Shown one piece after another: positions 38,246 to 49,401 of a DNA stretch of 64,000 nucleotides. Source of the DNA: a phage; sequence record PZ179883.1. One strand, written 5' to 3'. Below the pieces are notes generated by a model that worked only from the letters and a program-made list of their open reading frames with translations, searched no databases and had not been told where the DNA came from. Position 1 is the first letter of the stretch. Each line of letters starts with the position of its first letter. The translations under genes were made by a program, and so were the position numbers.

Positions 38246-38589
38246 CTAGTACTCAATCCTCGATTATAAGAATCTACCAAACGGTCAACCATTGAATGAC
38301 AAGCGGCTTTATCTTTCTCCTCCGCAACTGAACATTCTAAGGTATTCCACTTTTTAGCATATCGTTTTAATAATGTATCGTTTTTGTATCTGCTTGATTT
38401 ATCTCTTTCTCCGTCTTTATATGCATATATTAATTTCTGCGCAAATTCAGCTTGGCATGCTTTATTTTTCCCACAATAATCTGCCGCAGTGCGATTTACA
38501 TATTCTCTAATTTCAGTATATGATGTATCTGCTGACGCAGAAGCAGAAAATGAAATTAATCCTATACATAAAACCAAAATTTTAGTCAT
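38242..38589 (-). CDS. vs: Secreted protein at the vs position
   Basis: 115 aa with signal peptide; synteny only. Confidence 0.45.
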   Translation of the reverse strand: MTKILVLCIGLISFSASASADTSYTEIREYVNRTAADYCGKNKACQAEFAQKLIYAYKDGERDKSSRYKNDTLLKRYAKKWNTLECSVAEEKDKAACHSMVDRLVDSYNRGLSTR

Positions 38590-48084: not shown

Positions 48085-48435
48085 TTAATATTCTTTTAAA
48101 GAATCAATATATTCACGGCGTTTACGCCACAAATCAATTGCTTCATACGCGGATTCAGCATTTCGAATTAGCCGGCATTTATGTAAAGACTTATGATTTT
48201 GATATTGTGTAGATAACGGAATTGTATCTAAAAGGTCTTTACGATCAAAATATTCGTAACCATCTAAACCAAATGAACGATTTTTGAGAAATTGCCAATG
48301 ACCATATTCGTTTTCGACATAAACATAATCTGCATGCTGATAAAGCAAATTAATTACACGTTCAGAAATAACAGTATCATTATGATTAAAATAGAATGTT
48401 AAATCATGAACTACTAAATAAACATTACCTTTCAT
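48085..48435 (-). CDS. Hypothetical protein embedded in the tRNA/stable RNA region
   Basis: 116 aa ORF between the tRNA-Arg gene and the stable RNA region. Confidence 0.4.
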   Translation of the reverse strand: MKGNVYLVVHDLTFYFNHNDTVISERVINLLYQHADYVYVENEYGHWQFLKNRSFGLDGYEYFDRKDLLDTIPLSTQYQNHKSLHKCRLIRNAESAYEAIDLWRKRREYIDSLKEY

Positions 48436-48451: not shown

Positions 48452-48527
48452 TGGTCGAGGCAGTAGGGATCGAACCTACGACCTAGGACTTAGAAGGTCC
48501 TTGCTCTTCCTTCTGAGCTATGCCCCG
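48452..48527 (-). tRNA. tRNA-Arg (anticodon UCU), CCA encoded
   Basis: Hand-folded cloverleaf: acceptor CGGGGCA, anticodon loop CUUCUAA, T-arm GTAGG-TTCGATC-CCTAC. Confidence 0.8.
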
Positions 48528-48530
48528 TAA

Positions 48531-48612
48531 TTGGGGTGACCGATGGGAGTCGAACCCATGACTACGAGAATCACAATCACAATCTCGAGTTCTACCAACT
48601 GAACTACGGCCA
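48531..48612 (-). tRNA. Atypical tRNA-like gene: His-type (GUG) with a 6 nt tandem duplication giving a 13 nt anticodon loop; possible pseudogene
   Basis: Canonical acceptor, D- and T-arms and C73 discriminator; anticodon stem CGAGA/TCTCG encloses TTGTGATTGTGAT instead of 7 nt. Confidence 0.5.
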
Positions 48613-48727
48613 CATTAATACCTACTCCAACAATCAAGATGTCTTCACACGAAATTAAGAGAAGAGTGATCAGTTCAACCCCTATAATCGCGTCAAGTAG
48701 ATATTAATGTGACAGTTGTCACAAATT

Positions 48728-48802
48728 TGGCGGACGTGATAGGATTCGAACCTATAACCAATCGCTTAACAGGCGATCGCTCTGCCATTGAGCTACACAT
48801 CC
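48728..48802 (-). tRNA. tRNA-Asn (anticodon GUU), CCA encoded
   Basis: Hand-folded: anticodon stem ATCGC/GCGAT, loop CUGUUAA, T-arm ATAGG-TTCGAAT-CCTAT. Confidence 0.75.
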
Positions 48803-48806
48803 AAAT

Positions 48807-48894
48807 TGGTGGGGAGTGGTGGAGTCGAACCACCCGAGTCGCAATGACAATGGATTTACAGTCCACACCGCTACCTCTACGGGATAACTCCCCA
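48807..48894 (-). tRNA. tRNA-Tyr (anticodon GUA), class II with long variable arm
   Basis: 88 nt; anticodon loop CUGUAAA; T-arm GGTGG-TTCGACT-CCACC. Confidence 0.75.
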
Positions 48895-48902
48895 AATTAA
48901 TT

Positions 48903-48977
48903 TGGTGGCCCTGGGTGGAATTGAACCACCATCTGGCGATTATGAGTCGCTTGCTTGAACCTTCCAGCTACAGGGCC
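48903..48977 (-). tRNA. tRNA with CAU anticodon (Ile2/lysidine-type or elongator Met)
   Basis: Anticodon loop CUCAUAA; T-arm GGTGG-TTCAATT-CCACC; T4 tRNA-Ile equivalent by position. Confidence 0.7.
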
Positions 48978-48978
48978 T

Positions 48979-49054
48979 TGGTGCTGATTGACGGAATCGA
49001 ACCGCCGACCTTCTCATTACAAGTGAGTTGCTCTACCTACTGAGCTAAATCAGC
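48979..49054 (-). tRNA. tRNA-Thr (anticodon UGU)
   Basis: Anticodon loop CUUGUAA; acceptor GCTGATT/AATCAGC; CCA encoded. Confidence 0.8.
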
Positions 49055-49059
49055 AAAAC

Positions 49060-49149
49060 TGGCGGAGGCGATAGGATTTGAACCTATGAGTCGCCGGAGC
49101 GACTGCCGGTTTTCAAGACCGGTGCATTAAACCACTCTGCCACGCCTCC
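49060..49149 (-). tRNA. tRNA-Ser (anticodon UGA), class II
   Basis: 90 nt; anticodon stem CCGGT/ACCGG, loop CUUGAAA; long variable arm. Confidence 0.8.
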
Positions 49150-49151
49150 AG

Positions 49152-49225
49152 TCTCCGTGGCAGGATTTGAACCTACGACATTCTGCTCCCAAAGCAGACG
49201 CTCTACCAAACTGAGCTACACGGAG
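49152..49225 (-). tRNA. tRNA-Pro (anticodon UGG), 3-prime CCA not encoded
   Basis: Anticodon loop UUUGGGA; abuts tRNA-Ser, like the T4 Pro-Ser dimeric precursor. Confidence 0.8.
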
Positions 49226-49235
49226 TAAATTAAAT

Positions 49236-49309
<74 letters not shown>

Positions 49310-49314
49310 AAATT

Positions 49315-49401
49315 TGGTGCGAGAAGTGGGACTCGAACCCACAAGGAAATCATTCCGCAGCATTTTAAGTGCTGTGCCTTTACCAATTTGACCATTCTCG
49401 C
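49315..49401 (-). tRNA. tRNA-Leu (anticodon UAA), class II
   Basis: 87 nt; anticodon loop CUUAAAA; T-arm GTGGG-TTCGAGT-CCCAC; CCA encoded. Confidence 0.8.

Follow-up and report, generated by a model that had tools for sequence, protein, structure and literature searches.

A six-nucleotide tandem duplication enlarges the anticodon loop of a Tequatrovirus tRNA-His gene and most likely disables the tRNA

The 64,000-nt stretch of phage DNA analysed here (record PZ179883.1; hereafter the window) carries a gene with the parts of a tRNA and an anticodon loop of 13 nt. The question raised by this locus is whether the gene is a damaged tRNA, an RNA that has acquired another function, or an error of the assembled sequence. 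The explanation that we consider rather likely is that it is the tRNA-His(GUG) of Tequatrovirus with a private and recent 6-bp tandem duplication, which is tolerated by the phage and has most likely left the allele null or severely weakened.

The RNA as read is GUGGCCG-UA-GUUC-AGUUGGUA-GAAC-U-CGAGA-UUGUGAUUGUGAU-UCUCG-UAGUC-AUGGG-UUCGACU-CCCAU-CGGUCAC-C-CCA; its parts, and those of the surrounding region, are listed in Table 1. An earlier note on this DNA, made without database searches, had described an acceptor stem, a D arm, a T arm with a TTCGACT loop, C73 and an encoded CCA, all of which were found in the sequence. It had also described an enlarged loop of 13 nt closed by a CGAGA/TCTCG stem, and this was borne out by direct reading and by alignment with relatives. 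Its coordinates (48531-48612) were shifted by one base from the position given by ARAGORN. Within these 13 nt the normal UUGUGAU loop occurs twice, the copies overlapping. The discriminator base is C73, as seen in the 3′ end CGGTCAC-C-CCA when aligned with E. coli hisR.

Table 1. Features of the tRNA-His locus and its surroundings, in positions of the window.
Feature	Position	Strand	Basis or remark
tRNA-His-derived gene, 82 nt	48532-48613	minus	G1 = 48613; A76 of encoded CCA = 48532
Acceptor stem GTGGCCG/CGGTCAC		minus	direct reading
D arm GTTC-AGTTGGTA-GAAC		minus	direct reading
Anticodon stem, 5′ strand CGAGA (positions 27-31)	48583-48587	minus	same as wild type
Anticodon stem, 3′ strand TCTCG (positions 39-43)	48565-48569	minus	same as wild type
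Anticodon loop, 13 nt, TTGTGATTGTGAT (RNA UUGUGAUUGUGAU)	48570-48582	minus	direct reading and scripted parse
Variable region TAGTC; T arm ATGGG-TTCGACT-CCCAT; C73; encoded CCA		minus	direct reading
Tandem hexamer tract GATTGTGATTGTGATT, 2.7 copies (wild type GATTGTGATT, 1.7 copies)	48569-48584	minus	Tandem Repeats Finder
Position -1 = T, no G-1 opposite C73	48614	minus	alignment with E. coli hisR (G there)
Cluster of ten tRNA genes (Leu, Gly, Pro, Ser, Thr, Met, Tyr, Asn, His (the 82-nt gene), Arg)	48452-49401	minus	ARAGORN and Rfam
Structured element, unannotated in the records sampled	48614-48708, within the 114-nt Asn-His spacer 48614-48727	minus	folding and covariation
HNH homing-type endonuclease gene, 210 aa	49408-50040	minus	phrog_14736, E = 6e-124; Pfam HNH below threshold
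116-aa ORF directly downstream of tRNA-Arg	48085-48435	minus	phrog_3355 (unknown function), E = 8e-53

The gene belongs to the tRNA family, with all four stems of the cloverleaf legible and a score of 56.6 bits over the full Rfam model RF00005 (1-71), above the curated gathering score of 29. The covariance-model alignment requires an 8-nt insertion in the anticodon loop, at a place where the consensus has two unaligned positions. The anticodon loop of 13 nt departs from the 7 nt of a tRNA, and GUG is not found at positions 34-36 of a 7-nt loop: two GUG triplets lie in the enlarged loop, neither of them in the canonical context. ARAGORN labels the 82-nt gene 'tRNA-???', with no anticodon assignable.

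The window is that of a Tequatrovirus (T4-like, Straboviridae), and the region matches hundreds of Tequatrovirus genomes. The nearest records are about 98% identical to the window over 10 kb, and phage UTI-E4 is 96-97% identical over the approximately 39 kb that can be aligned. In the best records a 381-nt query across the gene aligns over no more than 375-377 nt, and the annotation given to the gene there is tRNA-His. In comparison with the tRNA-His of ADUt, Pinarejo, UTI-E4 and a further relative (L005), all 76 of the wild-type positions are identical and 6 nt are inserted. The alignment with related phages that the earlier note had called for shows, against ADUt and Pinarejo, a single 6-nt gap in the anticodon arm and no other difference over 100 nt. 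Deleting one ATTGTG/GATTGT unit, as the note had done in principle, gives the tRNA-His(GUG) of at least 170 relatives, base for base. For the wild-type gene of ADUt, ARAGORN returns tRNA-His(gtg), and RF00005 gives 65.1 bits without an insertion.

Orthology with the Tevenvirinae tRNA-His gene is supported by the position between the Asn-His spacer and tRNA-Arg, with flanks that are 100% identical. The gene occupies the same slot, between tRNA-Asn and tRNA-Arg, as the tRNA-His(GUG) of ADUt, UTI-E4, Pinarejo, RB18 and AR1, and has in common with the Tevenvirinae genes a T at position -1, C73, an encoded CCA and a G4.U69 wobble pair. It differs from them in the extra hexamer, in a loop of 13 nt instead of 7 nt, and in the loss of the anticodon assigned by ARAGORN. 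The wild-type arm, GA-GATTGTGATT-CTC, already contains a 4-nt direct repeat, GATT-GT-GATT, with a period of 6 (G30-U33 and G36-U39), and Tandem Repeats Finder reports the tract in the window with a period of 6 and 100% matches.

The duplication was found in no other sequence. With the 82-nt variant as query, none of the 590 matching phage records carries it; the best identity is 92.7%, which corresponds to 76/82, and no record reaches 95%. When the 76-nt wild type is searched instead, 170 phage records are at least 99% identical and a further 133 lie between 95 and 99%; of the matches listed, those that cover the full wild-type query are all 76 nt in length, never more. A 25-mer across the enlarged loop is matched exactly nowhere in IMG/VR, the JGI metagenomes or the GTDB species genomes, while the corresponding wild-type 25-mer, used as a positive control, is present in eight IMG/VR contigs and eight JGI metagenome contigs. 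A search of IMG/VR for the doubled His loop ATTGTGATTGTGATT, independent of the stem, gave at least 120 matches; these were discarded as chance occurrences, ARAGORN finding a tRNA at none of those listed.

A survey of the tRNA-His family gave the same picture, with a 7-nt loop in all 22 other members and the window as the sole exception. It comprised 21 scripted parses (six Straboviridae genera, a mycobacteriophage group and uncultivated viral contigs) together with T5, which was read separately, and some phages are counted twice, as a GenBank copy and an IMG/VR copy. The hisR gene of E. coli has the identical GATTGTGATT motif, and the duplication is seen in none of 5,430 copies from 5,426 complete genomes; all of these copies match at 60-80% identity, the band expected for the 76-nt form, and none falls in the higher band to be expected of a shared duplication. 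Because the allele is absent from all other sequences searched, the duplication appears to be recent, in agreement with the earlier note.

The duplication is probably explained by slipped-strand mispairing at the GATTgtGATT motif in replication. A slip of this kind would add one hexamer and turn the 7-nt loop into a 13-nt loop, leaving the acceptor stem, the D arm, the T arm, C73 and the CCA untouched. With the cloverleaf imposed, the wild type has a calculated energy of -23.0 kcal/mol and the variant one of -22.2 kcal/mol, a loss of about 0.8 kcal/mol, and that of the isolated anticodon arm changes from -4.5 to -3.7 kcal/mol. (Unconstrained minimum-energy folding was set aside in favour of the imposed cloverleaf, as it gives the same non-cloverleaf fold for wild type and variant and does not discriminate between them.) Since the cloverleaf energy is nearly kept, the body of the variant tRNA should form about as well as that of the wild type. 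In sequence, the variant is identical to the wild type at the CCA end, in the T and D arms and in the elements that RNase P uses. Given an untouched body and the small loss of stability, the 82-nt RNA would probably still be transcribed and end-processed with the rest of the cluster.

Decoding is a different matter. A loop of 13 nt is unable to take the canonical 7-nt anticodon-loop geometry that is needed for triplet decoding, and as a reader of CAY codons the allele is therefore most likely null, or else severely weakened; on general knowledge of tRNAs, the 82-nt RNA is probably inactive. We infer that the gene is a disabled allele, or a nascent tRNA-His pseudogene, of a known gene. It carries what marks a pseudogene, a structural lesion absent from its orthologues, here a private 6-nt insertion compared with hundreds of them. 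Loss of function is judged here against a wild-type gene that itself has no encoded G-1 (see below). The phage would tolerate the lesion because tRNA-His is supplied by the host and tRNA clusters of the T4 type are dispensable. The T4 tRNA gene region has been described as non-essential for phage development (PMC2330249). A reading of the insert as a mini-intron was rejected, as it is 6 nt long and repeats the neighbouring bases exactly in tandem; it has the features of neither a group I intron of hundreds of nucleotides nor an archaeal bulge-helix-bulge, and Rfam reports no intron match in the window.

The rest of the tRNA cluster appears healthy. ARAGORN assigns anticodons to nine of its genes (Leu, Gly, Pro, Ser, Thr, Met, Tyr, Asn and Arg), and the identity of these nine tRNAs, as of the 114-nt Asn-His spacer, to their counterparts in the four closest relatives (L001, L002, L005 and L131) is 98.7-100%. 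The hexamer is the only lesion in the cluster relative to these four, and the identity of the neighbours indicates that the cluster is otherwise under constraint in the lineage. Compared with the T4 set (Gln, Leu, Gly, Pro, Ser, Thr, Ile and Arg), Met, Tyr, Asn and His are present in the lineage of the window.

The allele, whether fixed or a minority variant, is known from one assembly, is a singleton across all collections searched, and lies in a short tandem repeat, all of which would be expected if the true gene had 76 nt and the extra hexamer had arisen in sequencing or consensus building. We nevertheless regard such an artefact as unlikely. Along the approximately 39 kb aligned with UTI-E4, the other indels inside coding sequences keep the frame, either because their length is a multiple of three or through compensation a few bases away, and the unpaired ones sit at gene ends or between genes; this pattern points to real divergence filtered by selection rather than to random consensus error, and makes an artefact less likely. 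The GATTGTGATT motif has moreover been sequenced in about 590 phage copies and in the 5,430 hisR copies without ever producing the error, and a clean 6-nt tandem duplication is atypical of short-read or homopolymer-type errors.

If the allele is real, the intact tRNA body raises the possibility that the RNA has been put to use. It might be kept because its two UGU/GUG motifs act as a decoy or sponge and draw off an enzyme directed at the anticodon loop of tRNA-His; candidate targets would be a colicin-E5-type anticodon nuclease (acting on GUN/Q34 tRNAs), Tgt or HisRS. The modelled cloverleaf is almost as stable as that of the wild type, and the lineage adds to the T4 set Tyr, Asn and His, three of the four GUN/queuosine tRNA families cleaved by colicin E5. 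Phage tRNAs have also been proposed or shown to counter tRNA-targeting defences through changes in the anticodon loop (PMC10264068; PMC11555353, PMC11464382). The precedents resemble the window gene in that a tRNA gene of a virulent phage has an altered anticodon loop (van den Berg et al. 2023, PMC10264068; T5 tRNA-Lys and PARIS; T5 tRNA-Tyr and retron Eco7). However, the evasion alleles in PMC10264068 are described as anticodon-loop mutations, proposed to leave the tRNA usable, whereas here the 7-nt loop is destroyed, and in one genome only; the words insertion, expanded and loop size are absent from that paper, which mentions neither tRNA-His nor decoys. The change is, furthermore, exactly what slippage predicts at the GATTgtGATT motif. 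An evolved function would predict conservation or recurrence, but the allele is a singleton in the collections searched, with no accompanying substitutions, so that the altered function, with an anticodon-nuclease decoy as its example, that the earlier note had entertained is not supported. We therefore consider a decoy very improbable. The more specific scheme, in which a stable, processed 82-nt RNA is sacrificed, its doubled UUGUGAU loop being bound or cut by a host enzyme directed at the tRNA-His anticodon loop (Tgt, or an anticodon nuclease of the colicin-E5 or another type) and host tRNA-His thereby spared, is a shade less probable again; if true, it would be the first phage anticodon-loop decoy born of simple slippage. 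Least credible of all, in our judgement, is that the 82-nt tRNA still decodes, as a frameshift or extended-codon reader or by using one of its two GUG triplets. A tRNA that is normal apart from extra nucleotides in its anticodon loop can indeed act as a frameshift suppressor or quadruplet reader, and in this respect the gene resembles the SufB2/sufD type, the engineered UAGN decoders and the yeast mitochondrial tRNA-Thr1 with its 8-nt loop. In the literature found, however, the loops are enlarged by one nucleotide, to 8 nt, and are selected for a decoding phenotype, whereas the window gene has gained six nucleotides as an exact tandem copy of the adjoining sequence, with no sign of a selected sequence. 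Engineered anticodon loops reach about 10 nt (an enlargement by up to about 3 nt), and the loop of 13 nt thus lies outside the size range of these suppressors; no conserved partner signal and no recurrence of the allele were found.

The duplication is thus most likely a recent copying slip that disables a tRNA rather than a new kind of RNA. In the literature searched, no description of a 13-nt anticodon loop was found. The gene may be compared with other non-canonical tRNA-related genes within the tRNA clusters of virulent coliphages, namely T5 tRNA-Gln2 (flagged as a pseudogene), T5 RNA1, RNA2 and RNA3, and T4 rnaC and rnaD. The T5 RNAs and rnaC/rnaD are annotated small stable RNAs in reference records, whereas the window gene is a lesion of one genome, the gene of its lineage being intact. 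As it stands the allele is one more natural lesion in a dispensable phage tRNA gene, and of limited importance; what it draws attention to is the slippage-prone GATTgtGATT repeat within the anticodon arm of tRNA-His. For annotation, the 82-nt gene is better labelled a tRNA-His pseudogene or variant than an unknown tRNA. Should the allele be stable and expressed, it would offer a natural test of the effect of a grossly enlarged loop on processing, Q-modification, charging and nuclease recognition.

A second 6-nt tandem difference from UTI-E4 was observed in the window, TTCTGC TTCTGC at about 38543-38554 (near 38548), in frame in the minus-strand gene vs, a valyl-tRNA synthetase modifier. This hexamer difference is a true polymorphism; the stretch is matched at 99% or more by 83 phage records, RB3 and RB5 among them. 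We therefore rejected the suggestion that the assembly is prone to private hexamer duplications: apart from the one in the anticodon loop, this is the sole indel of its kind, and it is widely shared.

The earlier note had taken C73 as the mark of His identity. C73 is indeed present, but the argument is incomplete. The identity set of bacterial tRNA-His consists of G-1, C73 and G34 U35 G36, with G-1 as a major determinant (PMC9976931), and G-1 is not encoded here. A G-1 paired with C73 is encoded neither in the window gene nor in the phage homologues examined, and T occupies position -1 in every phage tRNA-His examined, across six Straboviridae genera, mycobacteriophages, uncultivated contigs and T5 (among them the copies from L001, L002, L131, L133-L139, L141-L145 and L148). 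Judged from these alignments, the missing G-1 is a property of the wild-type gene of the phage lineage and not an effect of the duplication. The record of T5 notes that an anticodon-swapped tRNA-His gene is an effective amber suppressor, which suggests that phage tRNA-His without an encoded G-1 are functional. The same record annotates the tRNA-His as 78 nt, with the T at -1 included. No paper on enterobacterial phage tRNA-His without G-1 was found in the literature searched. That tRNA-His genes from three phage families lack an encoded G-1, on which E. coli HisRS reportedly depends, is perhaps of wider interest than the duplication.

Two further features of the phage copies were observed. The G4.U69 wobble pair is common to the Straboviridae and mycobacteriophage copies and is absent from host hisR and from T5. 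In one uncultivated viral genome (L144; IMGVR_UViG_2706796299_000001, minus strand), the tRNA-His is changed at several conserved sites, with a TTGTGGT loop (A37 to G), a C27.A43 mismatch in the anticodon stem and a TTAGAAT T-loop. This copy is still called tRNA-His by ARAGORN; from its sequence, it may be starting to decay.

The spacer between tRNA-Asn and tRNA-His contains a structured element. It folds far better than shuffled controls (MFE z = -4.4) and is closed by a 14-bp helix, in which 48708-48695 pairs with 48627-48614, so that the helix ends exactly at position -1 of tRNA-His. Among eight Tevenvirinae sequences all 98 of 98 cells of the helix are paired, with compensatory double changes at five pairs, while the interior of the spacer is variable. 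The covariation score was reached by none of 500 shuffles, and registers slid along the sequence pair at only 38-53%. The element has no Rfam match, and its identification with T4 rnaC or rnaD was rejected for want of meaningful similarity. That the spacer is a degenerate tRNA-Gln, as a label under the match in Klebsiella phage records might suggest, was likewise rejected, since the label reflects just a 3-nt overlap with the upstream gene. The element may be liberated by RNase P as a stable RNA, or may serve as a leader or in processing. A covarying leader helix that stops exactly at the RNase P site of tRNA-His may also be of wider interest.

At the other end of the cluster, the HNH gene sits at the position of tRNA-Gln in ADUt, Pinarejo and T4, with approximately the first 9 nt of tRNA-Gln left. 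UTI-E4 has the identical arrangement, and a mobile endonuclease has apparently replaced the tRNA-Gln gene in part of the lineage. Downstream of tRNA-Arg, where the window has the 116-aa ORF, the counterpart position in T4 is that of the stable RNAs rnaD and rnaC.
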